A DNA stretch of 57,651 bases, the filler included, from Stramenopiles sp. TOSAG23-2 (Eukaryota), in NCBI GenBank assembly GCA_900128395.1. It is 3 parts of 3 records of this genome, joined end to end, with 100 filler letters (N's around TTAATTAATTAA, not from the genome) between each part and the next. Parts side by side here need not be neighbours in the genome. Positions count along the whole stretch, not along the records: positions 1 to 19,248 come from LT649587.1; 2 more parts are not named here. One strand, written 5' to 3'. A model generated the notes under the pieces. That model was not told the DNA's origin and searched no databases. It worked only from the letters and a program-made list of their open reading frames with translations. Below are positions 1 to 38,489 of this stretch, piece by piece. The translations under genes and the position numbers were made by a program. Positions within the stretch are counted from its first letter, which is position 1, and the number at the start of each line of letters is the position of its first letter.

Positions 1-271
1 GATTATGTGTTTACAAAACTAATTTATTCATGTGTATAATGATATATTTTTGTTGAAATATGGGGATCTTAAGGTCGCTTATACAGTGGTAATACATTTA
101 TCCATATCGATTATTATTAAAATAAATTTCCGATTTAAAATTATTATATTATTAGTATTCTAAAAGTACAAATAAATAGGAAACATAATATTATAAAATT
201 GTATGAGTTAATTCCATTTTATAGATGAATATAAAAAATTTGTTAGATCACACAAGATTACTAAAATTCGG

Positions 272-295
272 GAATGGCCTCGATCGAGGCCATTC
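272..295. repeat. Perfect 24-bp palindrome GAATGGCCTCGA|TCGAGGCCATTC upstream of the first gene
   Basis: Seen directly: the second 12 nt are the exact reverse complement of the first 12. It is GC-rich in otherwise very AT-rich DNA. Confidence 0.9.
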
Positions 296-535
296 AGATT
301 ATCCCATTAAAGGATAGTACCTGGTAGTCGTCTATAATGAATAAAACATAGAATTGAAATAATTATAATATATTTATATACTATGTACATGTATAATAAG
401 TACATTTAATTTAAATATACAGAAACAAAGATATTCCACAGATCAAATGATCAACTAAAATATTTTTCAACGCATCTTAGAGTTTAATTGCACCTAATTA
501 TTACTATTGTCTGTAGTAGTAGTAGTAATAGTATT

Positions 536-3500
536 ATGTCGCTAGCAATATATACTTTGAAACGAATTTTATCATTAGGAAAACAAAGATCAAAAGCAGT
601 TCATATTAAAACATCAACCACATGTCGTACTGCAGTTTTTTCATTAGTAGCATTATATTGCAGTAATGGTTATATTATACTGCGTTATGCTGGTCCTTCG
701 AATGACACTAGAAATGTTTTGCCCATTGTTAGGTATATCCCATGGTCTGTGTCTAGTGACTCTTTTGAAAGTAATAACACAGATAAAAATTTAGACAAGA
801 AAAATAATAAAAGCGATAATGATAATAATAATAATAATAGTACAATGAAAAACAACAAGCTTTACAACCATGCTGTAAAAGCATTAACATTTAACGACAA
901 TGGAAAGCAACTATTTGTCTTATGCGCAGATGGGAGTGTTTATTGTTTACCCGCTCTCGCAATTGTGATGGAAACAAACCCAGCAAAATCATCAAACAAT
1001 AATTCTAAAAATAATAGTAATAATTTAATACGCTCTGTTCCAGCAAATCAACTTTTACAATCATATGCTAGGACACCGGAACATGGGGAGAGCACAAGTG
1101 ATAATAGTAGTATAAGGCAAGCACGTCATGCGGTTAGGGATGCACGAAGGCTTGTTAAAAAAGGTAGCGGTGGCGTCTCGATCGTTTTTTGGCGTTCGTT
1201 TCAGGGAAAATCATACTTATTGCTAGGGACAGAACAAGGACGTATGATAATTGTAGATTGTGGTAAAGAAAATTTTGGTGATTATGTCCTTGGTCTTTTT
1301 ATCGCGCCAAAGCATCGTGTAGATAAAATAAATATATTGACAGATGGGTCAAAACAACGTCGATGGCGTTATGCTATTATAAATACATCAAAAGGTAATA
1401 AGGATGGACACAATACACGAATAAAGGATACATATCGAATATTATTAGAACGACCTAAAGCATTTGTACAAGGTTTGATGTCGCCATATAAAGATGCCAA
1501 TAAAATGTCTAGAAACGAATATGTAAACTTATGCGATCATTTATCATCATCAGAAGCTGATAATCCTTTATCGATAAGTGGTGGGATTGGCTTTTCGTTG
1601 GGTAGCATTAGAGGTAATAAGAGTCAAAAAAATAGTCCTGGTAGCAATAATTACAGTAGCCCTAACAAGAATAACATTGGTAATAACAGCAATAATAGCA
1701 ATAATAATAATGCAAGTTTGCAATTACATCCTGATTTTATTCCACAAAAAATTACATTTGTTGAAAATTATATGTCTAATAATAATAATAATTTATCTGA
1801 ACAACATTTAGGAAGCTGGCAAGGATCTGGATTAGGTTTATATGATCAAGAAAAATTTTTGTTCTCATTATTTTCTGTAGATGCACCATTGCCACAACGA
1901 TATCCATTGTTTGAATTTAATATGCCATCTTCAACGGAAAATATTTTATATACGAAACGAGTTCTTTTTGTAGGATGTAAAGATGACGTGCAAAACAATA
2001 GTAAGAACTACAATAATGGTAAAACTATTGTTAAATTATTCTCGTCATTTTTATTATCTGGTGTTTCAACCGATAGAAACGATGATGATGATATAAATGC
2101 TGATAGTAACGATACCAATGACAATAAGAGCGGTGATAGCAATATTGGTTTAATACAAACATTCGAAATACCAACTGATTGTGATACTAATATCATTAAT
2201 TTTGAATATGCGCCATGGTGCTTTACAAAATCTGAAGATTTGTATTTAGAAGGTGTTATCATGATAACACGTGATGCAATTTATGAATTTCAACCAAGAA
2301 GTATTGAAAGAATTGAAGAGAATTTTCAAAATTTGATCGATCAAGAAGAAGAAGAGGATATTGCAGATGAACTGCAGCAACAAGTAAATGATTTATCAGA
2401 GATAAATGAAGACAATGACAACGGTAATAATAAATCGATGAATGTTGAAAGCACAAGCCCTGAACAATACGCCCAAGTATTAGGTTTAAATATATTAGCA
2501 TTGTATGAACAAGCTGGTGATAGAAAGTTAAAGGAAGGAAAACAAAATGCGGCAAGAGCTTTAGCATTGTACAAATTATCAAATATGAGTGTACATCAAA
2601 TATTAAAGCGCTTGATTTTGGCTGGTAGGCCTGATTTAGCTGCTACACACGCTGCGTTTATCTTAAGCTCAAATGCAAATAATGAAACATCTGAGTTTAA
2701 TAAAGCAGAAATTACAGATTTATCCCATTTAGCTATAAAATGTTATTTGAGTTGTGTGGAGAGGCTTCCTAATAATGGTGATGATAATAAGCAGAATGGT
2801 GGTGATCAAATTGATGATAAGACAAATATGAATACTTATGTAGGTAATGATACAGTATCGTTACAATTGTGCAGCGATCAAGCTAAAATTGTTGAGCCGA
2901 ATGCACCTTTTGGTTTGCTCAGTTTTTTAGAAAAAAACAAAATTTACGATCTGAAATTTGTGTTGAAGTTATTATGCCAAACTGGTTTATATGGTGCCAT
3001 TTTTGTTGCTGCACATTCAAGAAAGAACATATTGATAGCATTGGAATTGTTTGCGCTCTCATCAGCTCCTAAGTTAAACCAATTGTGTTATCAATATTTA
3101 TTGCAACACAATTACATTAAGGAAATTTGCTTAGCATCTGAATCAAGTATATTCCATGCACTGACGGCAGATAAACAATTTCAGTTGCTATTCAAAAATA
3201 ATTGTATCATTACGACAAATGTACAAATCAGTTTAATTGTTTACTTGTATCCAGTCCTATCCTCTCGTATATATGAATGGAGCAGTGAGCAAATATTACA
3301 TGCTACAATTGTAGTTGAAAATTTGCTGCAAGAACTAAATAATATGTTCATGAATAGCAATAATAAAAAAGATAATGCCAATAGACGTCGATCGTTATGC
3401 GTATTATCAGAATGTTTAATACATTTTCTACTATTTTACGTATCTAAGCCACCATCCTCGGTGGAACATGACGAAGAACGCCAACGACAACTGAAACGAT

Positions 3501-4447
3501 TAGAAGTTTTTGTATCTTTACAAACAAAATATTTTCGTCCAAATGTGATTGAATGTTTAACCGTCGATTTTGAATGTTTTAGTATTGGTGCTTTAATGTA
3601 TGAAAGTAATAATAGATTCGATAAAGCTGTAAATTTACGCTTGTCTGAAATTCAAAGCAATTATGTCAATAGTAGTAATGAAGGCAGCATGGATGGTGAA
3701 TTTTGTAATTTATTATTAAATTTGATTGAAAGTCATATTTTAAAAATTTCCATAAGTGATCGTTTAATACGTGTCAAATCATTACGAAAAATATTTCACC
3801 TGTGGTTTAAACTTAAATTTGATGTTAAAATCTTTGAGGCTGTGATATTAAAACATATATCTTCTCTTGGATATGAATTTAGTGCCATATTATTTCCACA
3901 GCATGACATTAGGAAACTTAATAATAATAGCAGCAACAACAATTACAACAGAAAGGATGGTATCAATAAGGATCGTAGAAATGATGATTCGATGGAAGCT
4001 TTATATCCACACTTTTCAAAAGACGTTTGCTTTGCTTTATGTATTGATCAAGTTTTGCCATCTCAGCATGAAAATAGGAGACGAAGACGAGCATCGTCTA
4101 TTGGTTTGTTGGGAGGGATTTGTACGAATCTTGCGAAAGGTATTAATGATAACAGAGAAATTGTATTGCATGCAGAAGATATTGATGGAATATGTCGTGA
4201 AAGTAATAATGGAACCAGTAGTGGAGGTGATATTTTAGTATTTTCATGTGGCCATGTATATTCAAAGCAAATTTTTTTCGAAGAAGTATTAGAACATTTT
4301 AAGCAAAGATTATTAAAATTGCGTTATACTTTACCAGCGACATTGGCAGTCATCTTGAAAGAATATAGAAAAGAGCATATATCATGTGCATGCCCAAAAT
4401 GTCTTATCATGTATTTTGAAGATATTGATCAACATATCGAGGAATAA
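536..4447 (+). CDS. Large uncharacterised protein; possible beta-propeller + helical solenoid + C-terminal degenerate RING/Zn-finger (Vps/HPS tethering-like layout)
   Basis: Long uninterrupted ORF; first ATG at 536 (the track's start at 488 is TTG). Beta-rich N-terminus (ALTFNDNGKQLFVLCADGSVYC, YLLLGTEQGRMIIVD), helical middle, C-terminal FSCGH...CACPKC. Family assignment is inference. Confidence 0.55.
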   Translation: MSLAIYTLKRILSLGKQRSKAVHIKTSTTCRTAVFSLVALYCSNGYIILRYAGPSNDTRNVLPIVRYIPWSVSSDSFESNNTDKNLDKKNNKSDNDNNNNNSTMKNNKLYNHAVKALTFNDNGKQLFVLCADGSVYCLPALAIVMETNPAKSSNNNSKNNSNNLIRSVPANQLLQSYARTPEHGESTSDNSSIRQARHAVRDARRLVKKGSGGVSIVFWRSFQGKSYLLLGTEQGRMIIVDCGKENFGDYVLGLFIAPKHRVDKINILTDGSKQRRWRYAIINTSKGNKDGHNTRIKDTYRILLERPKAFVQGLMSPYKDANKMSRNEYVNLCDHLSSSEADNPLSISGGIGFSLGSIRGNKSQKNSPGSNNYSSPNKNNIGNNSNNSNNNNASLQLHPDFIPQKITFVENYMSNNNNNLSEQHLGSWQGSGLGLYDQEKFLFSLFSVDAPLPQRYPLFEFNMPSSTENILYTKRVLFVGCKDDVQNNSKNYNNGKTIVKLFSSFLLSGVSTDRNDDDDINADSNDTNDNKSGDSNIGLIQTFEIPTDCDTNIINFEYAPWCFTKSEDLYLEGVIMITRDAIYEFQPRSIERIEENFQNLIDQEEEEDIADELQQQVNDLSEINEDNDNGNNKSMNVESTSPEQYAQVLGLNILALYEQAGDRKLKEGKQNAARALALYKLSNMSVHQILKRLILAGRPDLAATHAAFILSSNANNETSEFNKAEITDLSHLAIKCYLSCVERLPNNGDDNKQNGGDQIDDKTNMNTYVGNDTVSLQLCSDQAKIVEPNAPFGLLSFLEKNKIYDLKFVLKLLCQTGLYGAIFVAAHSRKNILIALELFALSSAPKLNQLCYQYLLQHNYIKEICLASESSIFHALTADKQFQLLFKNNCIITTNVQISLIVYLYPVLSSRIYEWSSEQILHATIVVENLLQELNNMFMNSNNKKDNANRRRSLCVLSECLIHFLLFYVSKPPSSVEHDEERQRQLKRLEVFVSLQTKYFRPNVIECLTVDFECFSIGALMYESNNRFDKAVNLRLSEIQSNYVNSSNEGSMDGEFCNLLLNLIESHILKISISDRLIRVKSLRKIFHLWFKLKFDVKIFEAVILKHISSLGYEFSAILFPQHDIRKLNNNSSNNNYNRKDGINKDRRNDDSMEALYPHFSKDVCFALCIDQVLPSQHENRRRRRASSIGLLGGICTNLAKGINDNREIVLHAEDIDGICRESNNGTSSGGDILVFSCGHVYSKQIFFEEVLEHFKQRLLKLRYTLPATLAVILKEYRKEHISCACPKCLIMYFEDIDQHIEE

Positions 4448-4473
4448 TTTGTATGTACATGTTTTATATAATG

Positions 4474-6555
4474 TTATTTATATCCAACTTTTCTAACACT
4501 TGGTACTTGCAATGTAGTTTGGAAGCCTTGATTAATACCCTTACGCTTCTTTCTACGACGATTTTTATCATATTTTTTAGAAAATTTGCCTTTACCATGT
4601 CTGCGTTGCCATTCTTTATGCCTACCGGTGGTTTCAAATTCATTTGTAGTTGCACGGCGAGGTTTCTCCTCTTCATCATCGCCATTATTGCTACCATCAT
4701 CACCATCATCGTCGTCGTCATTACCTTCTTGTGATTCATATGTAAAGGATTGCAATGGATCAGCTTGTGCATTTTTATTTTTTCGTTGAGATGCACTACT
4801 GTAATTATTAGCGCCATTGGTTTTCTTACGCTTACGTTTTCTTTTATTGCCAAAGTTAGTTTTTTTCGGTTTCATATCAGCTGGTAATAAATAGTCCGGT
4901 ACATGTGCTAAATGTTTTTTAATTAAATGCGGTCGCAAGGTACCTGCATGTTGCAAAATTTGTAAATCTTGCGGGTTTTCTTTAAAGTGATCTTTTAAAC
5001 GCTCGGAATTAATCATCTCCTGCTTCAATTCGCGAACACGTGCATCTCGCACTGCAACTTTAGTCACTGCACGTTTAACATCATCCATACGATACCTAAA
5101 ACCTTCAAGATCTTCGATTTTAAAATCAAAAAAAGCTGGTTGGCATAACATATCATCGCCTTCCCCTTGTAGTGTATCACCGTCTTCATCATTATTATTG
5201 TCAGCGGTACTATTTGCAGTTTTACTATTTAATCTTGGTTGTTCATCTTGCACTAATTTTAATATTTTTAACTCTTCCATATTATCATCTTCAACAAATG
5301 ATATAGCAGTGCCTGATGCACCACCACGTGCTGTACGTCCTATTCGATGTGTATATGCTTCAGGCGATTTTGGAAAATCTATATTTAATACAAATGTAAC
5401 ACCATGAAAATCAACACCACGAGATACGCCATATTCTTTATCATTTTTTGAAGTAGATTTTTGATTTGATTTCTTCGTTTTAGATGAATCTGCGTCGTCT
5501 TCTTCCTCCTCATCACTAGAATTATCTGATGATGAAGACTCCTCTTCATCATTTTCTTCCTCCTCTTCTTCCATTCCTAAACTATCATCAGTTGCAATTA
5601 ATATATCAAATACGCCTTTGTTAAATTCTTTTATAATATGTTGTCTAGAATTAAATGGCAATTCTGAATTCAATACTGCTGCATGAATACCAAATTGTTC
5701 CATGATTAATTTTTTGCGATAACATGCTTCAACATCATTGACGAAAAATAATGCTTTCCCAGTAATTACACCTAATTTAATAAATGCATACAATAATAAA
5801 TCTTTATCATCTTTTGGTATTGATAAATAAAATTGCTTCAGTTGACCATCACGTTTTCCCATTTCTAATCTTAAAATGACTGGATTACGCAACACTACTT
5901 TTTTCAATTTTTCCAAATCGTCACTAAGTGTTGCGGACATTAATAAAGATTGACATGTTTTAGGTAATTTTTCCACTACGGATTTAACATCATTTGCATA
6001 TCCATACGATAAAACTAAATCAGCTTCATCAACAATCAAGGTAGTGATAGTCTTCGCGTTGAAGTTGCCAGCTGCTAAGTGTTTCGCTGCTCGCAATGGT
6101 GTCGATATGATAATATCTGGATTTTCTCGCAACCATGCCTTTTGTGTATCTAAGCTTTCACTGGCAAAACTTAACGAAGTAATATCGTCTTTGCAATAAT
6201 AACATAATTGCTCTAATTGGTTCAACACTTGTCCACATAACTCACGTGTTGGGACTAATATCAACGCACGTACACCTTTTTTATAACTACTTTTCAAACT
6301 TTTTTCCAATAATATTTTTTGCAATATTGGTAAGCAATATGCTGCTGTTTTACCTGAACCAGTCCTTGCATGCACCAATACATCTTTCCCTTCCAATGCA
6401 AACGGTAAGCATTTTGCTTGTACTAACGTTGGATATACAAAGCCTAACTTTGCAATTGCTTTTGCCAATCTAACGTCTAAACCAAGGCTTTTACATGCTA
6501 CTTGAAATGATACTTGATCATCCAATAAATGGTGGTCTGTTTTCGTTGTTGTCAT
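4474..6555 (-). CDS. DBP9: DEAD-box RNA helicase DBP9/DDX56 (60S ribosome biogenesis)
   Basis: ARTGSGKT, PTREL, DEADLVLSYGY, SAT, EYGVSRGVDF, HRIGRTARGG, and DDX56-type C-terminus (FRYRMDD...REL, HLAHVPDYL). Confidence 0.92.
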   Translation of the reverse strand: MTTTKTDHHLLDDQVSFQVACKSLGLDVRLAKAIAKLGFVYPTLVQAKCLPFALEGKDVLVHARTGSGKTAAYCLPILQKILLEKSLKSSYKKGVRALILVPTRELCGQVLNQLEQLCYYCKDDITSLSFASESLDTQKAWLRENPDIIISTPLRAAKHLAAGNFNAKTITTLIVDEADLVLSYGYANDVKSVVEKLPKTCQSLLMSATLSDDLEKLKKVVLRNPVILRLEMGKRDGQLKQFYLSIPKDDKDLLLYAFIKLGVITGKALFFVNDVEACYRKKLIMEQFGIHAAVLNSELPFNSRQHIIKEFNKGVFDILIATDDSLGMEEEEEENDEEESSSSDNSSDEEEEDDADSSKTKKSNQKSTSKNDKEYGVSRGVDFHGVTFVLNIDFPKSPEAYTHRIGRTARGGASGTAISFVEDDNMEELKILKLVQDEQPRLNSKTANSTADNNNDEDGDTLQGEGDDMLCQPAFFDFKIEDLEGFRYRMDDVKRAVTKVAVRDARVRELKQEMINSERLKDHFKENPQDLQILQHAGTLRPHLIKKHLAHVPDYLLPADMKPKKTNFGNKRKRKRKKTNGANNYSSASQRKNKNAQADPLQSFTYESQEGNDDDDDGDDGSNNGDDEEEKPRRATTNEFETTGRHKEWQRRHGKGKFSKKYDKNRRRKKRKGINQGFQTTLQVPSVRKVGYK

Positions 6556-6556
6556 T

Positions 6557-6590
<34 letters not shown>

Positions 6591-6611
6591 TTAACTATAA
6601 ATAACTAAAAC

Positions 6612-7111
6612 AATATATAGATAAATATGAGTGATTGATCAATGTATGTTGCATATATCAATATCCTGTGATGGATACCAACTTTATCTTGTAATATATA
6701 TAACTATTATTATTATTACATGTATTAATACAATCTTCCTTCTCGTCTACTGGCCATCCATCCTGTTGTTGTGGCATAAAACTTGAAGTAGTTTTTAATT
6801 GGTACTGTCTTTGATTTATTATCCCTATATATACATAGATCTGGATGGACACAGCATTAAAACATATCAGAGCTCCCTATTACAGGTCTACAGTACAGTA
6901 CTGTATAAATTGAGGAGGCGAGCCCGAACAACAACAAACTAAAAACAAACTCGTCATTTTTTTCACCACCATACCGGTATAGTATTATAATACGTGCCAA
7001 TTACGCCAGTATATTATTAATATGTGCATATTAATAATACTGGCATAATAAAAAAAAAGAAGAAATATATAATATATAGATAAATATGAGTGATTGATCA
7101 ATGTATGTTGC
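6612..7111 (+). repeat. Identical 41-bp direct repeat (6612-6652 and 7071-7111) bracketing a divergent promoter
   Basis: AATATATAGATAAATATGAGTGATTGATCAATGTATGTTGC occurs twice, 459 bp apart. Confidence 0.9.
7001..7048. repeat. Imperfect inverted repeat (hairpin) in the divergent promoter
   Basis: GCCAGTA(TA)TTATTAATATG-TG-CATATTAATAATACTGGC forms an 18-bp stem with a 2-nt bulge. Confidence 0.75.
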
Positions 7112-7169
7112 TTGTTATCGTGTTTTATTGTTTTAAATTCCATAATTATAACTATTGCCCATTATTACA

Positions 7170-8609
7170 ATGACCAGAAAAGGAAAACGAAGACGTAAAT
7201 ATGAAAATTCAAACCAAGAAATTAAAAAAACATGTAAACCACATGATTCCACAACAAATATGGATATGGAGCAATTGAAAAAAAATTTAGGGTTTGTTCC
7301 ATCCAATTTATATTGGGTGAAAAAAAGAAGCAAAAAAGATGTTGAAACGAATGAAATAACGCCACAAGCTTGCGTTATGTATCCATTGTCAACTACTGCA
7401 TTGAATGGAAAATTAGAGCCGTTTCCAACGATTTGCTGGTTAACTAGTACAAAGTTAAAAACTCGTGTTAGTGCATTGGAAAAATCAGCATGGATAAAAG
7501 ATTTTCATTACATGTTAAAAACAAATGTAAATACATATGGTAAACGTATGAGAAATGCACATGAAATGTATGCAAAAACACGAACTAATTTATTAACTGA
7601 GGAAGATCGAGATCTAGTCATTAAAAATGGATGGACACAAGCTTTAAGTGAAAATAGAGGAGTCGCTGGTATCTTGAAAACGTCTGTAGATATGAATAAT
7701 AATAATAATTCAACAACAATAACTACATGGGATATAAGTGTTAAATGTTTACATGCACATCTTGCACATTATTTATGTTTTCCAGAACATGACAATATAA
7801 TTGGTAAATGGACTTGGAATGCATTAAATAAAAATTACGATTCGAATCGAATTTGTACAACATTACCGTTATTAAATTCTATATATCAATTATGGAATGA
7901 CAATAACTCAAATGATGAAATTGTGAAAATGCAAGCACAAATGTTAAAGAAATGTTTAAATACAATGTATATAGAAGAAGATAATAATAATAATAATAAT
8001 AAAATTTGTAAAAAGTGGGATGATATTCATCAAGTAAAAACGGTACCTCCTGAAAATGTAAGTCAAATGCTATCAAAGAATAATAATAAGCATGAAAAAA
8101 TATTGAAACCAATTAAAATATTATTAGAGAAAGCATGGGATGTCTTACCATGGAAACTTCCAAAAACATTGTCACATGATTATTCAAATAATATGGGCGA
8201 AGTATTGCAGCATTTTAAAAGTGTCATGATAGTTGGTAATCCAGAATATGGTGCCATGATAGAAAGCAATGAATTATATGTTGGTTTATTTTATTTAAAA
8301 GAAAATATGCATTATCCAACCCATGCACATGAAGCATTTGAAACGTATACATTCATAAGTGGTAATGGGGATGAAGTATTACACCAACGTGATCAGAAAG
8401 ATGATGATAATAATAATGAAAATACAGCGATGACAATTGCAACCCCAACACCTTATATACATAATCATGGTCATCAACCACACGCTATTAAAACATCGAA
8501 TAAACCATTAGTTTGTTTATATGCCTGGACACGTGGTATTAATGTTGATGGTGTTAACAATAATAGTAATAGCTTTGAGCTTCCAGGGAAGTATTGGTTT
8601 TGTTCTTAA
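7170..8609 (+). CDS. Fusion protein: N-terminal DUF501 + C-terminal DMSP-lyase-like cupin (DddQ/DddL type)
   Basis: DUF501 motifs PFPTICWLT, RGVAG and VKCLHAHLAHYL...NIIG. Cupin motif 1 VGLFYLKENMHYPTHAHEAFETYTFISG and motif 2 HNHGHQPHAIKTSNKPLVCLYAWTRG. First ATG at 7170. Confidence 0.75.
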   Translation: MTRKGKRRRKYENSNQEIKKTCKPHDSTTNMDMEQLKKNLGFVPSNLYWVKKRSKKDVETNEITPQACVMYPLSTTALNGKLEPFPTICWLTSTKLKTRVSALEKSAWIKDFHYMLKTNVNTYGKRMRNAHEMYAKTRTNLLTEEDRDLVIKNGWTQALSENRGVAGILKTSVDMNNNNNSTTITTWDISVKCLHAHLAHYLCFPEHDNIIGKWTWNALNKNYDSNRICTTLPLLNSIYQLWNDNNSNDEIVKMQAQMLKKCLNTMYIEEDNNNNNNKICKKWDDIHQVKTVPPENVSQMLSKNNNKHEKILKPIKILLEKAWDVLPWKLPKTLSHDYSNNMGEVLQHFKSVMIVGNPEYGAMIESNELYVGLFYLKENMHYPTHAHEAFETYTFISGNGDEVLHQRDQKDDDNNNENTAMTIATPTPYIHNHGHQPHAIKTSNKPLVCLYAWTRGINVDGVNNNSNSFELPGKYWFCS

Positions 8610-8983
8610 AAAAGATTATATATATTTCATATTATATGTCACACCGTTAGATCTTATACACTATATGTAATATTGTAGTACTCTTTTAGCAACCTTACCA
8701 CCGGTAGGCATAAAGAATGGCAACGCAGACATGGTAAAGGCAAATTTTCTTGTGACATATAATATGAATATATATAATCTTTTTTAAGAACAAAACCAAT
8801 ACTTCCCTGGAAGCTCAAAGCTATTACTATTATTGTTAACACCATCAACATTAATACCACGTGTCCAGGCATATAAACAAACTAATGGTTTATTCGATGT
8901 TTTAATAGCGTGTGGTTGATGACCATGATTATGTATATAAGGTGTTGGGGTTGCAATTGTCATCGCTGTATTTTCATTATTAT
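8410..8983. repeat. ~233-bp inverted duplication of the 3' end of the DUF501-cupin gene (arms 8410-8643 and 8751-8983)
   Basis: Minus-strand ORF 8784-8990 reproduces the last ~64 aa of the 7170-8609 protein. The arms differ by a 1-bp indel (TATTTCAT vs TATTCAT). Confidence 0.95.
8697..8750. repeat. 54-bp inverted copy of DBP9 coding sequence (source 4579-4632) inside the inverted-repeat spacer
   Basis: ACCACCGGTAGGCATAAAGAATGGCAACGCAGACATGGTAAAGGCAAATTTTCT is the exact reverse complement of 4579-4632. Confidence 0.95.
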
Positions 8984-9032
8984 CATTCATTCATTGAGAG
9001 ACAGAGAGAGAGATAGAGAGATACGTATCAAT

Positions 9033-11324
9033 ATGTTTCAATCATTGCAAGAATTCGACTTTTACAAAAAAGTACATAAAGATTTATATCAAACTAGTAC
9101 TGTAGGTGGACTTTTTTCAACATGTGCAGTCATTTCTGTTGCATTACTCTTTTTTCTAGAGCTAAATGCATATTTAACTATTAACCATATGAGTCAAATT
9201 ATATTGGATTCTGGTGGATATGAGCCGTTTGTTAGCATACGGTTTAATATGACGTTTCCACATTTGCCGTGTAAATACGTAAGTGCAGAGCTGCAAGACG
9301 TATATGGACACCATACATTGAATGAATCAACGAGTAGTAACGTTGATGTAAGAATATTTAAATGGCGTGTTGTGGACGAAGGGAAAAGACGTGTTAGTGT
9401 TATGGAAGAACATAAGGAACCAAATGATGCTGGGCATCATGAAATTTTGCCAGATGATCATCATATACATAGTATGCAAAAAATTGCAACAAATTTAACT
9501 GTTGCCACGTTTGATTCTTTCATACAAAAATATGACGTTGTTATGGTCGATTTCTATGCACCTTGGTGTATTTGGTGTCAACGTTTAGAACCTGTTTGGG
9601 AAAATACGGCATATGAAGCTAGTAAAAAAGATTATGCAGATTTTGTACGATTTGCAAAGGTTGATTGTACGACGAAAGAATGGGCACCGATATGCAGGAA
9701 AAAGAAAATATTTGCATATCCTAGCGTATTTATGTACCGTGATGGTAGATCAGATCGCCATCAACAATATCATGGTGCACGTACGACAACTGCATTTTTA
9801 TCATACATTGAAGATTTACCAGTTGAAACAGAGCAAGAAGAGCAACTATTAGATGAGGAACAACTGGTTAAAGAAGAAATAGAGCAGGAAGAATTAGGTA
9901 AAATAGGAGCAGCAGAGCGACATGCGAAAACGGCTGATAATTTGCCAATAGACCATGACATCAATCATCCCCTAAAAGCTGTAATGCCAAGAGGAAAAGA
10001 TAAACATGGTTTAAAAGCATTGATGTCCATTTTAAACATTTTGGCAAACAATGGTGGGGCACGTCAAGGTGGTACAATACGCGTGTTGCGTGCTAAAAAT
10101 GGTGGTTCAGTTCGTATCATATCAATAAGACGTATACCGTTCGGTAAACGCCACAAGATGAAAGGAAAGTTTATGAAGAAAAGTGGCACTGCAAACAGAC
10201 CAGAAAAAATTGGAATTAAAAAAGTATTAAAAAATGATCCAAATATTAAAATTAAAATTTTGCCAAGTAAGAAAGGCCAGCCATCCGCTAACCAACCTAC
10301 AACAGCTGAAGTATTAAAACAAGCAACAGAAGTAGCCAAGGCTGCCGACAAAGTGAAAGGAGTCGTAAAGACCGTGGAAGATGCTGCACAAAAAGCGAAG
10401 GACGCCGTCAAGCCATCTGGAAGAAGAAGACGGAGACGTTTGATGTCGGTAGCCGGTGATGGAAGCAGAATCTCGACGCAAGAATTAAGACAATTGAAAG
10501 ATGAATTTTTAGGTGAAAAAGATACGAATAAAAGACAAGCAATATGGAAAAACAAAGTTTTACAATTAGACGATGATTTGCAAAAAAGATTTCAAGATAT
10601 GTTGGATGGGAAAGAGGTAGAAGATGGTGAAGCAGAGTTACATCATCATGAAGAAGCAAAATTAGTAGCGGACCATGGAGACCATGAGCACCATGCAGAT
10701 GGTTCCAGAAAACCTGATTATGGGGATATATCTGGACGTGCACCAGAAGACCATCCACATCATGTTGGTCATACCGAGGGGTGTTTAATTTACGGTGCAG
10801 TAGCCGCGGAAAAAGTTCCCGGTACGCTACGAATCACTGCTAAGTCAAAATGGCATGATTTTGTTGGGCACCATATTGATTTGTCGCACACGATACATCA
10901 TTTATCATTTGGTGATTTAACCCACGTCCTACAGAATGAATTCGAACATATTGATTTTCATGAATATGAAGGTTTGAAATATATTTCTACATTAGGTGGA
11001 AAGTATTTTAAATCTGATGCTAATAAAATGACACATCATCATTATACAAAAGTTGTTAAAACAAAGTTTAAGTTGATGGATCAAATTCCCCCTGCATTAC
11101 GTGGACATGAACTTTTTCAATATACAGCATCGAGCCATCAATATGAAGATTATACGCATGTTCCATCCGTTAAAGTATCATTTGATTTTAGTCCAATGAC
11201 GTTATACTTTAAGGAGCATGGAACACCAATGTATAAATTTTTGACTTCTGTCTGTGCCATTATTGGTGGTGCAGTAACAGTATTTTCAATGGTAAATTCT
11301 ATTGTACAATCGATGAAAATTTAA
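9033..11324 (+). CDS. PDI-C/ERGIC-type protein (ERGIC_N + thioredoxin WCIWC + COPII-coated ERV domain)
   Basis: FDFYKKV...STVGG + TM + FNMTFPHLPC...D; DFYAPWCIWC; GCLIYG...KVPG, SHTIHHLSFG, FDFSPM, FLTSVCAIIGG. Likely start ATG 9033, because the upstream part of the track ORF is the inverted-repeat arm. Confidence 0.88.
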   Translation: MFQSLQEFDFYKKVHKDLYQTSTVGGLFSTCAVISVALLFFLELNAYLTINHMSQIILDSGGYEPFVSIRFNMTFPHLPCKYVSAELQDVYGHHTLNESTSSNVDVRIFKWRVVDEGKRRVSVMEEHKEPNDAGHHEILPDDHHIHSMQKIATNLTVATFDSFIQKYDVVMVDFYAPWCIWCQRLEPVWENTAYEASKKDYADFVRFAKVDCTTKEWAPICRKKKIFAYPSVFMYRDGRSDRHQQYHGARTTTAFLSYIEDLPVETEQEEQLLDEEQLVKEEIEQEELGKIGAAERHAKTADNLPIDHDINHPLKAVMPRGKDKHGLKALMSILNILANNGGARQGGTIRVLRAKNGGSVRIISIRRIPFGKRHKMKGKFMKKSGTANRPEKIGIKKVLKNDPNIKIKILPSKKGQPSANQPTTAEVLKQATEVAKAADKVKGVVKTVEDAAQKAKDAVKPSGRRRRRRLMSVAGDGSRISTQELRQLKDEFLGEKDTNKRQAIWKNKVLQLDDDLQKRFQDMLDGKEVEDGEAELHHHEEAKLVADHGDHEHHADGSRKPDYGDISGRAPEDHPHHVGHTEGCLIYGAVAAEKVPGTLRITAKSKWHDFVGHHIDLSHTIHHLSFGDLTHVLQNEFEHIDFHEYEGLKYISTLGGKYFKSDANKMTHHHYTKVVKTKFKLMDQIPPALRGHELFQYTASSHQYEDYTHVPSVKVSFDFSPMTLYFKEHGTPMYKFLTSVCAIIGGAVTVFSMVNSIVQSMKI

Positions 11325-11998
11325 AAATGTGGTCATAATAATTATCATATTTTTTGGGAGAGACGTTTTGTGCTTTTAAAAAAAAATATATAAAAAAAAA
11401 ATTTACGATTCGTAGATGTACCGACTTCGGTACATTTATATAAATATTAAAATACGAGTTTATTATACGTATATAAAAAATTCTCTTATTTATTAAGTTT
11501 AAAAATTGCGTATATATATGTGTTTTTCTCTTACTCATATATGTTATATATATATTTATATTTTTATACTTTATTTTTTATAATATCGTGCAATTAGAGC
11601 TTCCACTCTATTGTAGGATAGAGAATATTATTCCTTGAGATTGAGTATTGTGAGCATATTATTTAAATATAAGCATATGCATACCATGGGAAGTAAAATT
11701 ATTATCATGTACATATGTAAAGATATATAAATACACGTTTGTACGAATCAATATTTATGTACGTATATTTTTCGTAATAAAAAATATAATACGAAGGATT
11801 CGTAATATTTTTTTTTTATGTAACACTTTTTTAAATGGACGATTTTTCAAATATTTTTTTTAAAATATCATACCTTCTTTGTTTTCTCTTATAATTGTGC
11901 AATTCTTGTCCCAATGAAACGTTTAAATTAGTCGTTTTAATAAATAAACCAAGCATAAGTTAATTGATTCCAATTGAAAAAAAAAAAAAACTACTACT

Positions 11999-12733
11999 TT
12001 ATGCGGTTTCAGTACCATGTCCTTCCACGGTATCTAAGAAGTTATCGCTAATTGCAAACTCCTTTACTATCTTTTCATCATATTCTGAATATTGAGCAAA
12101 TAAATTATCTGCACGTCTATGTAACATGAAATCTGAATATGGTTTTAAACGCATATTTAACATCTGTGCACGTGCAAACTGAAAGCCTAACAAAGTAAAA
12201 CTTGCAGTACCAAGTACAGGTTCCATCCAGGTCCATGTCCATGCACCAGTTTCTAGCCACGTTTCAAGATCAGCTGGTGGTGGAATATCCGTAGTCACAT
12301 ATTTGTCGTTAAACCAAAGAGCAACATCCAAGTTAAATACCATAGGAATGGAACCAACACCGGTAAGCATTGCAGCGAATACACCGAGTTTATATGGAAA
12401 AGTTGCAACACCCATACCAGCTTTATTTGCAACTTCTATCTCAGTCAATTTTGGACCAGCGGCGTCCCAGTCGACATTATCAACAGCCATAATTTCCCTA
12501 CGAAGACGCTCTTTATTTGCTTCGTGTTCACCAAGCGCGCCCAGTTGCATCAGCATGTCATTTGGCATTTCGCAATACTCACGTGGCATATTTTGTGCTT
12601 CCTCAATAGTAGGTTTGGATATTTCATGGTTGTAATTACGGTGTGGAGTAAAAAAAGTAGCAGCATTTTTTGCTGCCATTCTACTAAAAGTAGATTTATT
12701 TACTAATACTTTTCTTGAAATTTGATTAAACAT
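11999..12733 (-). CDS. Hypothetical membrane protein, probably mitochondrial
   Basis: 244-aa ORF with a basic, S/R-rich N-terminus resembling a targeting peptide, two hydrophobic segments and a WLETGAWTWTWMEP motif. Confidence 0.7.
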   Translation of the reverse strand: MFNQISRKVLVNKSTFSRMAAKNAATFFTPHRNYNHEISKPTIEEAQNMPREYCEMPNDMLMQLGALGEHEANKERLRREIMAVDNVDWDAAGPKLTEIEVANKAGMGVATFPYKLGVFAAMLTGVGSIPMVFNLDVALWFNDKYVTTDIPPPADLETWLETGAWTWTWMEPVLGTASFTLLGFQFARAQMLNMRLKPYSDFMLHRRADNLFAQYSEYDEKIVKEFAISDNFLDTVEGHGTETA

Positions 12734-13771
12734 GTTTGTTTTTGTTTGAATGTTTTCTTACTTCTATATTTCTTGTTTTTGTTGTATATATATTTAGATG
12801 TATATATATAAATGTATATATATGTGTGTGTGTCTCTATGTTTACGTTGTTGATGCCAATCTTTATAATTTTGGATTTAAAATTATTAGAAGAAGATATA
12901 TAATGATGATGTGCTAATAATAATAATAAAATATGCTCCACTTTTGGGCATTGTAAGCCTATTTCTATGGTATTAACAAAATCTTTAATCAATCTTGCAT
13001 CACATCCTATACTCTTCCTACCACCGTGGTAATCCAGGTAATCCACCACTCCCCGCTGCTGGCCTTAGCTGGGCACAGTATTTTACCTCTATTCTGTATA
13101 ATAAATGAAATAAATTTAAATAATTAATTCCGAAGCAATTTCTTTTCTGTTTTGTTGTTGTACCAGGTATTGTGCTATTGTTGTATTGCGAGGTGCCGAG
13201 ATTGTAATACATCAGTATATGCTGGTATGTTGATGATAACGTCACCCTATGTCCTGTATGAATATTTCATACTTTACGAGGACCCAGAGGACATGGGACA
13301 ACATTTAGCAATAGTAGCAGCATCGTCTATTACTGTACTGATGGAGTAATATTATACAGTAGTGCATTTATTAATACTAAAAACCACAGATACATTGAAT
13401 AGCTATTATACTCCTCATACCAGAAGCATACACACAGTAGTATTATAATTATAACGATGTCATTTATATATATGTTATATTTAGTTAATAAATACTAAAG
13501 ATAACATATATATATATTGAATGAAAGAAGAATCATATTTATATTTAAATATAATTACATTCATACAAACATATTTATACATATATAGATATATAGATAT
13601 AGATATATCACAAAGAAAGAAAACGAAACTTAGTAAATTTATCAGTTGTTTGCTGTTGTTGGTTTTTATTTATTTTTCTTGTTAGTTCATTATTATTATC
13701 ATATAAACTTAGTTATACATATATTATATTTAGTACTATAATAATTTAACTGTTTTTAAAAAATAAAAAAA

Positions 13772-16072
13772 ATGTCTTCTAAAAAAAGCAAAAAGTTAGT
13801 TATAAAACCATTTCGACCAAATGCACAATGGAATGAAGATAAAGCAAAAAATGTATGGCAAGCATTGAGTAATGCTATTAAAGAGATACATAAAGAACGT
13901 GCTGGTTCGTTAAGTTTTGAAGAATTATATCGTAATGCATATAATTTAGTATTACAAAAACATGGTGATTTATTATATCGCGGTGTATCGGATCAAGTGA
14001 AAAATCATTTGCGTGTAGTTGGTAAACATGTTGCTCAGGCAACTGATGGTAATTTGCTTCAGCGATTAAATGAAGCATGGGAACGGCATACGACGACTAT
14101 GGTGATGATACGTGATATATTAATGTATATGGATAGAACCTATGTTATACAACAAAAAAAAGATGATGTATATAACTTAGGTTTAAAAATATTTTTAAGT
14201 GAAATTGCTCGACATCCACAAGTCAAAGAAAGATTATTAAATTTACTTTTAGGCGATATTCAATCAGAACGTTCAGGGGAGGTAATTGACCATAGTTTGA
14301 TTAAAAATGTCTTAGCAATGTTAGTTGCATTGGGTGTCAATTTTAACAACCATACACGAGATGTATATCAACAAGATTTTGAAAAACATTTTTTAAAAGC
14401 AACTGCTCAATTTTATATGAATGAATCCACACAATTTATTGCAAACAATACATGCCCTATGTATTTAATCAAAGCTGAAAAACGTTTGAAGGAAGAACAA
14501 GAACGGATTGTGAGGTATTTGGATGCAAGTACAGAACCTAAATTGATTAATATTGTACAGCGTGAATTGATATGTAAACGTGCTGAGATGTTAGTGAAAA
14601 TGGAAAATAGTGGTTGCGTAGCAATGTTTAAAGATGACAAATTGGAAGATTTACGGCGCATGTATTCCTTATTCAAAGGGGTTGATCAACGACAAAGTTC
14701 AGTCAATACATTGAAGAATATACAAGATGCATTGGATAATTATGCATATAAAAGTGGCCAAAGGCTGATCAAAGATGAGGAAAAGACAAAGGACCCTGTA
14801 GCATTTGTAGATGAAATTTTAAAAATGAGAGAGAAATTTGAAAAAATTGTGATTTATTCCTTTGAAAAGGATAAAGTATTTGAACGTACGCTTAAAACTG
14901 CGTTTGAACGATTTATTAATGAAGATAGTAGATGTGCAAGGTATTTAAGTTTGTACATTGATCATCTATTGAAGAAAAAGTTAAAAGGCATGACGGAAGG
15001 TGCAGTGGATGAACAATTGGATAAAGTCATTGTCATTTTTCGTTACTTATCAGACAAAGATGTTTTTGAAAATTTTTACAAGCAACATTTATCGAAACGT
15101 ATGTTGTCTGGGCGTAGTATATCGGAAGATGCAGAGCGTGGTATGATTAGCAAATTGAAAAAAGAATGTGGATACCAATTTACACAACGTATGGAAGGAA
15201 TGTTTAAAGATGTACATATATCAAAAGATATTTTAGATCAATTTCGCAAATCAAAATATTCCAATCGTAGCGATAAAAGTAAAAAAAGTAGCAGCAGTAG
15301 TAAAAGCAAAAGTGGCAATGTGGATTTGGAAGTGAAAGTATTAACATCAGGTTTTTGGCCAACACCACCTGTGCCACAATGTAATTTCCCTGCAAAACTT
15401 TCTGAATTAGCAGAACGTTTTAAAATGTTTTATTTAGAAAATCATTCTGGGCGTAAATTAACATGGCAATGCAATATGGGAACAGTTGATGTTCGTGCCA
15501 TTGGCTTTAAAAAGAAACATGAGTTCAACGTTAGTACATATCAAATGTGTATATTGGATCTATACAATAAAAACAACGAATATACCTTTCAAGATATATT
15601 AGATGAAACACAAATTCCACGCGATGAATTGAAACGTCATATAATATCAATGTCTTTATCAAAATTTCAAATATTGCGTAAGAAACCAAGAGATAAAGGT
15701 ATTAAAGATACGGATGTCTTTGCTATTAATTTTGATTTTAAAAGTAAAATGTATCGTGTTCGTGTACCATTAGTTACAATTAGTAGTAAAAGTAGTGGTA
15801 GCTCTGGTGGTAGTAGTAGTAAAGAATTGCATCAAATTTCAAAAGCAGTTGAACAAGATCGACGACATGCAATCGAAGCGTCCATTGTACGTGTGATGAA
15901 GACTAGAAGAACATTAGATCATAATACATTAGTTGCGGAAGTTACTAAGCAATTATCTTCTAAATTTGTTCCATCACCACAACATATTAAAAAAAGGATT
16001 GAAAGTTTAATTGAACGAGAATATTTAGAACGACAACGGGAGGATAGGAAAGTTTATAATTATTTAGCTTAA
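13772..16072 (+). CDS. CUL3: Cullin-3
   Basis: LSFEELYRNAYNLVLQKHG, MIRDILMYMDRTYV, KDVFENFYKQHL, neddylation site IVRVMK, IESLIEREYLER...YNYLA. Confidence 0.96.
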   Translation: MSSKKSKKLVIKPFRPNAQWNEDKAKNVWQALSNAIKEIHKERAGSLSFEELYRNAYNLVLQKHGDLLYRGVSDQVKNHLRVVGKHVAQATDGNLLQRLNEAWERHTTTMVMIRDILMYMDRTYVIQQKKDDVYNLGLKIFLSEIARHPQVKERLLNLLLGDIQSERSGEVIDHSLIKNVLAMLVALGVNFNNHTRDVYQQDFEKHFLKATAQFYMNESTQFIANNTCPMYLIKAEKRLKEEQERIVRYLDASTEPKLINIVQRELICKRAEMLVKMENSGCVAMFKDDKLEDLRRMYSLFKGVDQRQSSVNTLKNIQDALDNYAYKSGQRLIKDEEKTKDPVAFVDEILKMREKFEKIVIYSFEKDKVFERTLKTAFERFINEDSRCARYLSLYIDHLLKKKLKGMTEGAVDEQLDKVIVIFRYLSDKDVFENFYKQHLSKRMLSGRSISEDAERGMISKLKKECGYQFTQRMEGMFKDVHISKDILDQFRKSKYSNRSDKSKKSSSSSKSKSGNVDLEVKVLTSGFWPTPPVPQCNFPAKLSELAERFKMFYLENHSGRKLTWQCNMGTVDVRAIGFKKKHEFNVSTYQMCILDLYNKNNEYTFQDILDETQIPRDELKRHIISMSLSKFQILRKKPRDKGIKDTDVFAINFDFKSKMYRVRVPLVTISSKSSGSSGGSSSKELHQISKAVEQDRRHAIEASIVRVMKTRRTLDHNTLVAEVTKQLSSKFVPSPQHIKKRIESLIEREYLERQREDRKVYNYLA

Positions 16073-16239
16073 GAAATAAAGAGGATATTAGATATATATA
16101 TGCTCATTTCGATATGCAAATTTAGATGATAGATTTTACAATATAAAACTAATACTCTATAACATCAATAACAACAACGAGTACAATATCTAAACCTTTA
16201 GAAGCAGTTGTAAATAATATTACCTAAAAAAGAAACAAG

Positions 16240-17325
16240 ATGGAAACGCTTGCGATAATATTAATCATAGCAATTATATTTTTAATTGAAGAAGGACAAA
16301 GTAAATTATCATGCCTGGACAACAATTTAAGCGACGTGGATTGGTATAATGCAGTTAAAGTACCTGATGATTTCTTATTCAGTTACTTTGATCCAAGCTC
16401 ATCTCCAAATTCTCCACCTGGGTTGCAAATCTTTCCTGGGCATAACATGAATACAACCTCCAGTTCTGTCGGTGGTACGATAAATCAAGTTTTTCAAGAT
16501 AAAGATGTTGCATATGTAGCTTGGAATGATGAATGTCCAGATGATAATAACATAAAGAAAAATGGTTCTTCTATGTCAATACGAAGACGCCAATTATATC
16601 ATCAACGTGCACACTCAAAAGGTGTCATTGCATGGGATGGTGAAAGTGGATTTTGGTTAATACATTCCGTGCCAAAATATCCAGACTTTGATGATAGTAA
16701 ATATTCATGGTCTGGTGATATTAAAGGTAGAAACGCACAATCATTTTTATGTATTTCACTTGACAAAGACAACATTGAAAAATCTGCGTCTCAAGTGTTA
16801 TTCATGGATCCGGATGTATGTACATCGAATATGCCATCTGCTTTAAGTAGTGAAGTGCCAAATTTAACCGAGTTGGTAAATGGTGGTAAAACATCAATAT
16901 CAGATACTACAAGTGTGGAAAAAATTTCTAGTGTAAATGGTCAATCCTTTACATCTTTTGCAAAAACTACAGCCTTTAATAGCGATTTATACGAAGACCT
17001 CGTCATTCCAAAACTAGGAAGTTCATTTGAATGGCAAACATGGAGACGTGCCTCTGGCACACCGGAGGATTCGTATTGTAAAGGTGATTATGATAGTGAA
17101 AATGTATTGTATACATCATTTCCTTTTGATAATTTACAATGGCATTATACGAAAGATCATTCAAAATATGGAATTAGTTCTGGCGGTAGTGACTCTTATA
17201 TTTGTGTTGGTGGAATTAACCGAATGGTCTCACAGAGAAAACGTGGAGGTGGAACTGTTTGTTTTGAAAATGATGATTTGCATGATTCTATCTCTGCTTC
17301 CTTTTCTAACGTAGAAGAATGTTAA
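16240..17325 (+). CDS. DNASE2: Deoxyribonuclease II (secreted/lysosomal)
   Basis: Signal peptide; VDW, AHSKG and DHSK (two HxK motifs), GFWLIHSVPKYP, QSFLCIS, CVGGINRMVSQRKRGGGTVC. Confidence 0.92.
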   Translation: METLAIILIIAIIFLIEEGQSKLSCLDNNLSDVDWYNAVKVPDDFLFSYFDPSSSPNSPPGLQIFPGHNMNTTSSSVGGTINQVFQDKDVAYVAWNDECPDDNNIKKNGSSMSIRRRQLYHQRAHSKGVIAWDGESGFWLIHSVPKYPDFDDSKYSWSGDIKGRNAQSFLCISLDKDNIEKSASQVLFMDPDVCTSNMPSALSSEVPNLTELVNGGKTSISDTTSVEKISSVNGQSFTSFAKTTAFNSDLYEDLVIPKLGSSFEWQTWRRASGTPEDSYCKGDYDSENVLYTSFPFDNLQWHYTKDHSKYGISSGGSDSYICVGGINRMVSQRKRGGGTVCFENDDLHDSISASFSNVEEC

Positions 17326-17566
17326 AGCATTTAAAAATGAAACAATAAGTACAGAAAGTTGAGAAAGTGGTGTTGTGTGTCAATTTATTACATATTTTGA
17401 ATTGTTTTTTATTTACTAGATTCGTAATTCGGTTATAGATGTATTACTATTACTCTGGTCACCAGAGATTTTCCTTGCCAGTACCCTGACATATTACTAT
17501 GCTACTAGATGTATTTATTAGGTATTAGAGTATGAGCAAGCAAGAAAAGCAATAGACGGCCTTGTA

Positions 17567-18976: not shown

Positions 18977-18999
18977 TTACAATAAACAATAATACAATA

Positions 19000-19055
19000 A
19001 GGCCCAACAATATCTAAAATAATAATAACAGTATCAGGCCCAACAATATCTAAAA
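19000..19055 (+). repeat. Two 20-bp direct repeats AGGCCCAACAATATCTAAAA just downstream of the RT stop
   Basis: Copies at 19000-19019 and 19036-19055. Confidence 0.85.
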
Positions 19056-19248
19056 ACCAATAATACGTAGTGTTAATATTAGAAAATAAAAACGAGGAGA
19101 CGAAAAAATAGAAAAAAGAAACTTTCAGCACAAAAAAAAGAGGCGTAAGTAAAGATACACAGACTTACACATATATATTAGATACACACACGCATATACA
19201 GAAATACTTATAACTAAAAAGAATAAAAATAAAAAAGAAAAACCAAAG

Positions 19249-38440: not shown

Positions 38441-38489
38441 TGTTATATTATTATTTTTATTACTGACGGCACTACATTTACCATGTGTA
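38435..38489 (-). repeat. 55-bp inverted third copy of the cathepsin segment (35492-35546) fused to the ARM-BTB gene at the contig end
   Basis: Its reverse complement is TACACATGG...ACACAACGT, and the junction shares a CAACGT microhomology. Confidence 0.92.

Follow-up and report, generated by a model that had tools for sequence, protein, structure and literature searches.

The DNA analyzed here is a stretch of 57,651 nucleotides (the window) from Stramenopiles sp. TOSAG23-2 (GenBank assembly GCA_900128395.1), made up of three parts joined end to end with 100 filler letters between them; positions 1–19,248 come from record LT649587.1. Within it, a gene on the + strand at 7170–8609 encodes a DUF501 domain followed by a cupin of the dimethylsulfoniopropionate (DMSP) lyase type. 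The reading frame is open from 7155 to 8609, the ATG at 7170 is the first after the upstream stop, and 479 codons run uninterrupted to a TAA stop with no intron required. The coding sequence is colinear with those of three orthologues (P0002, P0046 and P0003) and with metagenome contig L078. A preliminary description of the locus had reported a single uninterrupted frame with poly-Asn runs and motifs of both families, and we found all of them in place: PFPTICWLT at residues 84–92, KCLHAH at 192–197, the YPTHAHEAFETY stretch at 382–393 and the QPHA...YAW stretch at 436–453. Both domain calls also held, as Pfam scored DUF501 (PF04417, residues 64–217, nt 7359–7820; E 9.6e-29, 100.5 bits, cut-off 23.8) and DMSP_lyase (PF16867, residues 315–448; E 3.8e-08, 33.7 bits, gathering cut-off 27) above the curated cut-offs. 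The third Pfam match, DUF5576, was sub-threshold, and there were no families beyond these three. An NCBIfam scan of the fusion protein assigned no family; in the protein Atlas the whole protein gave only leads with a score of 0.75, to bacterial DMSP_lyase clusters, and its DUF501 part gave no usable match.

The protein begins with a basic stretch, RKGKRRRK, at residues 3–10 (7176–7199), recognized by alignment with eukaryotic DUF501 proteins. The DUF501 domain occupies residues ~30–222 (7257–7835), where an alignment of 66 sequences located the codon of Glu104 (7479–7481), the glutamate of a putative metal site, and the KCLHAHLAH motif with Cys193, His195, His197 and His200 (7743–7769). Next comes the helical N-terminal part of a DddQ-like module, residues 223–330 (7836–8159), delimited by the AlphaFold2 (AF2) model and its superposition on DddQ and including a poly-Asn run at 7983–8000. 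The cupin β-barrel, placed by Pfam, model and fold comparison, follows at residues 331–479 (8160–8606) and contains a low-complexity insertion at ~401–421. Alignment with DddQ (5CU1) placed the first Cupin-DLL motif, HAHEAFETY (His385, His387, Glu391 and Tyr393), at 8322–8348 and the second, from His438 to Trp453, at 8481–8528. The poly-Asn runs, at residues 176–180 and 272–277, are inserts peculiar to this lineage: in the orthologues the same places hold gaps or different residues.

A word-indexed search returned 15 homologues, 3 with both Pfam families and 12 with DUF501 alone, so the same architecture was found elsewhere. The three (P0001, P0002 and P0003; 99%, 56% and 50% identical to the window protein) stand for clusters of 30, 15 and 5 members, proteins of 473–513 aa on separate contigs; among the 15 members listed of the 30 in the P0001 cluster, 12 are 479–485 aa long, on contigs of 1.6–5.4 kb. 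The orthologues score 42.7 and 43.9 bits for PF16867. Compared with P0002 and P0046, the DUF501 part is 66–67% identical, the helical region 46% and the barrel 56–58%. Contig L078 (1802 nt, from another collection) matches 7112–8687 at 98% with an uninterrupted frame of 480 aa, bridging the domain junction and both AAT repeats. In an orthologue locus of 56% identity (L079), the gene order equals that of the window: DEAD-box helicase (-), fusion (+) and ERGIC–thioredoxin gene (+). When shorter proteins were searched for split forms, the sole matches were three pieces of proteins from this same family, located either on short contigs or at the ends of contigs; nothing pointed to the cupin having a gene of its own in this lineage.

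An assembly or amplification chimera of two unrelated genes would agree with two observations: the window does carry perfect local duplications that resemble chimeric junctions, and Logan short-read contigs of four runs (X4, X11, X15 and X17) all stop at the AAT repeat 7969–8011, between the domains. Nevertheless, this explanation is refuted by L078, which covers the whole frame, by the near-uniform length of the listed proteins in the 30-member cluster, by the junction being kept in orthologues that lack the AAT repeat, and by the synteny retained in L079. The interval 7830–8050, where spanning reads had been proposed as a check, is thus bridged by L078 but not by the short-read contigs. The gene is probably expressed: RNA-library contigs match 7761–7968 and 8350–8585 (X15) and 7777–7930 and 8187–8395 (X17, oligo-dT) at 99–100%, in libraries where DNA carry-over is possible; the gap in the RNA contigs over 8622–9025 carries no evidential weight. 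Taken together, the sequence comparisons indicate that the fusion is genuine, conserved and old.

We then consider the DUF501 half. All 66 aligned DUF501 sequences, that of the window among them, retain Glu104, Cys193 and His195, and K192, C193, L194, H195, H197, A199 and H200 are invariant across the same set. The first three residues coincide with the Cys-His-Glu metal site proposed, on computational support only, for Rv1025/DUF501 (bioRxiv 10.64898/2026.08.31.746906; this and the other papers are cited for the accessible parts of their text). The same preprint reports that DUF501 is essential in three actinobacterial genera and recognizes a eukaryotic branch, so that the earlier statement that the family is mainly bacterial was incomplete. 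The N-terminal basic stretch is common to eukaryotic DUF501 proteins, with R8 nearly invariant, and is missing from the bacterial consensus; an LG(F/Y)xPxN motif is shared by the fusion and 12 DUF501-only eukaryotic proteins. Since those DUF501-only proteins, of which the nearest named one is from the diatom Leptocylindrus, terminate right behind the domain, the cupin was added at the C-terminus of a DUF501 gene. Three eukaryotic DUF501-only proteins (P0007, P0011 and P0015) have a hydrophobic, signal-peptide-like start in place of the basic stretch of the others, and may be differently targeted paralogues.

In a tree of the DUF501 domain (66 rows, 160 columns, quick search), the 9 fused rows formed a clade (support 100) inside a 21-row eukaryote clade (support 98), and the 45 bacterial rows stood apart. 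This arrangement argues that the fusion arose once, from a resident eukaryotic DUF501 gene. When DUF501-only and cupin-only alignments were combined, MAFFT misplaced 12 of the 12 DUF501-only rows. The full-length AF2 model reached a predicted local distance difference test (pLDDT) score above 90 over residues ~20–222. Foldseek gave 0 matches of a solved structure to DUF501 at E 0.001 or better, the domain not having been searched alone, and with the same limit a VIA-align comparison against 48,161 chains picked up nothing but the helical linker (Z ≤7.2).

A scan of prokaryote genomes found 77 DUF501 loci, in Bipolaricaulota, Fraserbacteria, Planctomycetota, Thermotogota, Riflebacteria, Actinomycetota and others; the bacterial proteins aligned are single-domain, of 146–213 aa. 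We inspected the two nearest open reading frames (ORFs) at 23 of the 26 best-scoring loci, those with at least three ORFs nearby (L004, L013 and L022 were left out). At 11 of the 23, the neighbours are the succinyl-CoA-ligase alpha subunit (sucD) and D-Ala-D-Ala ligase (ddl), and at others S1 with Ppx/GppA, TruB, RecO or LplA. The genomes in which DUF501 is placed between sucD and ddl, both on the opposite strand, are from Bipolaricaulota, Fraserbacteria and Thermotogota; the loci flanked in this way are L002, L003, L005–L007, L009, L010, L012, L014, L016 and L019. The sucD/ddl setting differs from the eno-divIC-DUF501-ppx2 block described for Actinobacteria (bioRxiv 10.64898/2026.08.31.746906). 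These bacterial surroundings look like housekeeping and do not indicate a pathway.

The cupin half carries the marks of the Cupin-DLL superfamily, which is defined by two motifs with six active-site residues (Lei et al., bioRxiv 10.1101/161257). H385, H387, E391 and Y393 align with H139, H141, E145 and Y147 of DddQ 5CU1, and H438 and W453 with H180 and W195, so that both metal-binding motifs named in the preliminary description are present and match DddQ residue for residue. All six residues are invariant in 4 of 4 fusion proteins; among 87 cupin relatives, H438 is kept in 82 and W453 in 73. The AF2 model of residues 222–479, built from 87 sequences, had a pLDDT of 86.7 and a predicted template modelling score of 0.87, with helices at positions 4–23, 29–47, 76–81 and 88–104 of the cupin half, and its superposition on DddQ spans model residues 5–258.

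Searching solved structures with this model, we found that the top six Foldseek rows were all DddQ chains (E 3e-11 to 3.4e-09). The five DddQ entries (4B29, 4LA3, 4LA2, 5JSP and 5CU1) gave VIA-align Z scores of 18.5–19.8 with a root-mean-square deviation (rmsd) of 2.5–2.7 Å over 187–190 residues, which is nearly the entire length of the DddQ chains (189–197 residues). DddY followed (E about 2e-08 to 3e-08; Z 15.8–15.9; 3.7–3.8 Å over 227–231 residues), ahead of generic cupins (E about 1e-06 or weaker; Z ≤9.5; 2.1–3.2 Å over 107–125 residues for the best two) and DddK (E about 5e-06; Z 9.7–9.8; 2.7–3.9 Å over 119–128 residues). With a sequence profile of the 87 relatives, the E-value was 3.8e-31 for DddQ 5CU1, 2e-05 for DddK and 0.004 for DddY. 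By profile and predicted fold, therefore, the cupin looks DddQ-like, with DddK and DddY weaker on both counts. The proposed fold match to DddQ was borne out, and of the earlier label "DddQ/DddL-type" the DddQ part stood; the DddL part gained no support in a comparison that comprised DddQ, DddY, DddK and generic cupins. These results indicate that the C-terminal half is a whole DddQ-type module, helical cap plus barrel, and a member of the Cupin-DLL superfamily.

An exhaustive phmmer search with residues 222–479 returned 96 proteins at E 0.001 or better. Next after the fusion family were standalone cupins, P0051 (239 aa, 33% identity, E 5e-24) being an example, and the few named relatives are from protists, namely Tetraparma gracilis and a Picozoa single cell. 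A Pfam scan of 41 of the 96 showed PF16867 in 39 and a C-terminal class-I S-adenosylmethionine (SAM) methyltransferase (PF08241/PF13649) in 9; two relatives (P0138 and P0141) also match AraC_binding. The cupin–methyltransferase fusions, from protists and metagenomes, are P0061, P0063, P0065, P0070, P0076, P0077, P0082, P0094 and P0098, and NCBIfam gave none of these methyltransferase-fused relatives a match above cut-off.

In the cupin tree, the four fused rows formed a clade (support 99) inside a 49-row group (Shimodaira–Hasegawa-like approximate likelihood-ratio test, SH-aLRT, 90), to which the 9 rows fused to a methyltransferase all belong, as do the Tetraparma protein and that from Picozoa. 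Three DddQ-like rows, whose matches to DddQ structures range from E 5e-19 to 6.5e-16, fall outside this group, so the fused domain does not group with DddQ-like sequences, in a tree that contains DddQ-like rows and no true DddQ sequence. The position of Tyr393 is replaced in 23 of the 48 other rows of the group (Phe 15, Ile 3, Trp 3 and Leu 2), whereas outside the group Tyr is kept in 37 of 38 rows, with 1 gap and 0 substitutions. The fusion clade thus retains a Tyr that many of its neighbours lose.

The gene lies in DNA of 27–35% G+C that is gene-dense and rich in long uninterrupted frames. Other genes in the window code for a cullin, a DNase II, a calpain, a palmitoyltransferase (DHHC), an ERGIC/thioredoxin protein and peptidases of lysosomal type; the window is eukaryotic nuclear DNA, in agreement with the eukaryotic host named at the outset. 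Six stramenopiles (Phaeothamnion, Chrysoparadoxa, Rhizochromulina, Tribonema, a bicosoecid and Achlya) are among the best named relatives of the cullin, which are 48–53% identical to it, and closer kin are found at 91, 76 and 71% identity. The stretch occurs in sequencing runs of 12 studies, among which the metagenome and metatranscriptome runs are labelled marine or seawater. Judging from these sequences, the host is a marine picoeukaryote, uncultured and probably a stramenopile, whose DNA is AT-rich and poor in introns.

Downstream of the gene there is a rearranged patch. A perfect 220-nt inverted repeat consists of arm A at 8407–8626 (+), which comprises the last 203 nt of the gene and 17 nt of 3' flank, and arm A' at 8767–8986 (-), an inverted duplicate of the gene's 3' end that is not common to L078; allowing one 1-nt indel, the repeat reaches to about 8644/8751. 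The stretch between the arms includes, at 8697–8750 (+), 54 nt that repeat the helicase gene's 3' end (4579–4632) perfectly and in inverted orientation; L078 has no counterpart. Arm A is the authentic copy, since it is covered by X4 metagenome contig 27 (8399–8658), X15 RNA contig 12 (8350–8585) and L078 (to 8687). L078 diverges from the window after 8687, and X4 contig 27 joins 8658 to 9029 by 272 nt, compared with 370 in the window; both lack the patch, which is therefore absent from other populations. Either template switching rearranged this stretch very recently, or the patch is a chimera of amplification or assembly. The coding sequence of the fusion is left untouched, its end being confirmed by X4, X15 and L078. 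Arm A' yields a spurious ORF of 68 aa (8784–8990, -) and also makes the next gene seem to start further upstream than it does. That gene is listed as 8910–11324 from a GTG at 8910 inside the patch; its real ATG is at 9033 according to the L079 orthologue, and its domains are ERGIC_N, thioredoxin and COPII-coated ERV.

Other repeats were observed in the window. Upstream of the gene, a perfect 41-nt direct repeat occupies intergenic positions 6612–6652 and 7071–7111, and the agreement between L078 and the window stops upstream of 7112, exactly where the second copy ends. Far from the gene, a 103-nt tandem duplication (35488–35693, 99% identity) splits an apparent Peptidase_S28 plus papain-family frame into ORFs 33606–35606 and 35551–36003, both of which repeat the same 34 residues, and 2.8 kb away, at 38435–38489, 55 nt recur perfectly in inverted orientation. 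This junction at 35.5 kb is of the same kind as that at 8.7 kb.

From the sequences and models, we lean, with moderate confidence, towards a lineage-specific two-domain protein with two metal sites and a catalytic cupin whose native substrate is probably something other than DMSP. The cupin would hold one transition-metal ion on two His and a Glu, with Tyr393 and Trp453 lining the pocket, and would act on a small carboxylate or zwitterion by β-elimination or a related metal-assisted step. DUF501 would handle a neighbouring step on the same metabolite, and for this reason, we propose, the single polypeptide would be kept under selection. Several points weigh against this reading. We infer catalysis, metals and substrate alike, and the fusion is the sole ground for a functional coupling of the halves. 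A search with the cupin profile, which matches the window ORF at 1.5e-47, uncovered no Cupin-DLL gene up to 10 kb on either side of any of the 77 bacterial DUF501 loci, with the threshold relaxed to E 10, and no DUF501 was present in the 41 scanned of the 96 cupin relatives. The cupin tree (86 domains, 133 columns, quick search) has many open forks. In the full-length AF2 model, the cupin half has a pLDDT below 50 and no interdomain geometry is given, because only nine fusion-family rows, the window's included, cover that half. In addition, every one of the nearest solved structures carries the name DMSP lyase in its deposition, and the Tyr is intact in the fusion clade; because of this a native DMSP lyase retains some probability.

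Such a lyase, in which the cupin would split DMSP, taken up or derived from digested prey, into dimethyl sulfide (DMS) and acrylate by the metal and Tyr mechanism of DddQ, with DUF501 as an accessory, is in our view unlikely. It would account for the six Cupin-DLL residues, Tyr393 among them, and for the ranking of DddQ and then DddY as nearest folds; the host is a marine planktonic organism, the window has genes for hydrolases of lysosomal type (a DNase II plus cathepsin-like and S28 peptidases), and fungal cupin DMSP lyases are a precedent for eukaryotic use of the fold (PMC13738216). The evidence for the role is nonetheless thin. The Pfam score lies just over the cut-off, compared with 95–98 bits for DddQ-like bacterial relatives, and the window, a small sample of 57 kb, showed no acrylate-handling genes. 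The subgroup is separate from the DddQ-like relatives and frequently loses the Tyr, and Tyr-to-Phe substitution abolishes or nearly abolishes the activity of DddY, DddL and DddW (bioRxiv 10.1101/161257); for these reasons the 49-row group as a whole is unlikely to consist of canonical DMSP lyases, though the fusion clade keeps the Tyr. Furthermore, DddQ itself is very weak and cross-reactive, and published work regards its cleavage of DMSP as promiscuous and reports that the vast majority of Cupin-DLL proteins do not function as DMSP lyases (bioRxiv 10.1101/161257; 10.1101/168930). On these grounds, the protist route to DMSP cleavage suggested in the preliminary description is not supported as it was stated. 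DMSP cleavage is possible, more likely as a side activity than as the native one, and some measurable DMS release in vitro would be more likely than a native DMSP-lyase role.

If instead the cupin were a ligand-binding or regulatory module that senses a small molecule or metal and controls an active DUF501, one could point to cupins that act as sensor domains elsewhere, to the AraC_binding matches of the two relatives noted above, to DUF501 being the better conserved half and to the essentiality of stand-alone DUF501 in the actinobacterial genera. However, orthologues with only 50–60% identity all keep every metal ligand and pocket residue, which is the pattern expected for catalysis, and the module is a full DddQ-type enzyme fold, so we hold this to be very unlikely. 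Another reading, highly improbable to us, would have the protist Cupin-DLL subgroup make or interconvert sulfonium or betaine osmolytes, for example by oxidative decarboxylation of 4-dimethylsulfonio-2-hydroxybutyrate (DMSHB) to DMSP. The methyltransferase partner in 9 of 41 scanned relatives would suit it, as would the bacterial DMSP-synthesis enzyme DsyGD, which joins a PF08241 methyltransferase to a decarboxylase domain (PMC11306096). The methyltransferase partner in the protist subgroup belongs to the same generic Pfam family as the DMSP-synthesis methyltransferases DsyG, TpMMT and DSYE (PMC11306096). The same paper states that knowledge of the decarboxylase step of DMSP synthesis is still lacking, and no algal DMSHB decarboxylase is known. 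Yet PF08241 is a generic family and NCBIfam gives the methyltransferase halves no specific assignment, the domain order is opposite to that of DsyGD, whose DsyD part is of a different Pfam family (PF04115), and the partner in the window protein is DUF501 and not a methyltransferase.

Alma1, the algal DMSP lyase, belongs to the Asp/Glu racemase superfamily; it resembles the window protein only as a eukaryotic protein connected with DMSP, the folds being unrelated. Fungal DddF and an Aspergillus DddW are likewise eukaryotic and, in addition, are cupin-family proteins tied to DMSP (PMC13738216), so that the earlier picture of eukaryotic DMSP lyases, which named Alma1, was incomplete. DddF is reported to be DddK-like, at ~30% identity (PMC13738216); by way of that description it differs from the window's DddQ-like module, which is far from DddK. 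DddQ of marine Roseobacters shares with the window cupin the whole-chain fold of cap and barrel, the HxHxxxExY motif and the His and Trp of the second motif. However, identity in the structural alignments is only 13–18%, the window cupin lies outside the DddQ-like rows of the tree, and it is eukaryotic and fused to DUF501 with ~60 extra residues and low-complexity inserts.

The window cupin fits the Cupin-DLL superfamily's two-motif, six-residue definition and exceeds the PF16867 cut-off, but that superfamily was described from bacterial and Tara sequences, and the accessible text of its description mentions neither a DUF501 fusion nor a protist subgroup (bioRxiv 10.1101/161257). The DUF501/Rv1025 family (PF04417, COG1507) is matched strongly, with the Glu-Cys-His site intact; the bacterial members aligned have one domain, its eukaryotic members have the basic N-terminal stretch, and the C-terminal cupin occurs only in this lineage, in 3 of 15 homologues. 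Apart from the fusion family itself, the cupin half has its closest sequence relatives in the protist cupin–methyltransferase fusions (P0061, P0063 from Picozoa, P0065 and others) of the same 49-row subgroup. They differ in their partner, a C-terminal class-I SAM methyltransferase as opposed to an N-terminal DUF501, and many have Phe, Trp, Ile or Leu at the Tyr393 position.

Both families were already known, and the architecture sits unannotated in public protein sets. Among the papers listed, the literature search found none joining DUF501 with DMSP or a cupin, in line with the earlier remark that no description of this fusion was known, although the supplements of the DUF501 preprint and of Lei et al. 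may include the protein. The main texts of two papers on uncultured marine stramenopiles (PMC8163842 and PMC8237690) make no mention of DMSP, dimethylsulf-, cupin or DUF501.

Both halves come from families whose native function is still to be assigned, and a conserved natural fusion is a rare genomic clue to a common pathway; the protein is also a soluble-looking eukaryotic construct in which both families can be assayed together. If the cupin cleaves DMSP efficiently, enzymatic DMS production, known from bacteria, algae and fungi, would extend to a widespread group of small predators in the sea; if it does not, the fusion would still be a clean test case for the true role of DddQ-like enzymes. 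As a bolder idea, which we regard as quite unlikely, the fusion may be a Rosetta stone that places DUF501 and the DddQ-type Cupin-DLL proteins in one small-molecule pathway, with an abundant lineage of marine predatory flagellates possessing an enzyme of its own to cleave DMSP or a related sulfonium or betaine compound. It concerns DUF501, an orphan family essential in Mycobacterium tuberculosis, and the DddQ-type Cupin-DLL family, which is equally an orphan. If it were true, grazers would be direct sources of DMS and not mere releasers of algal or bacterial activity.

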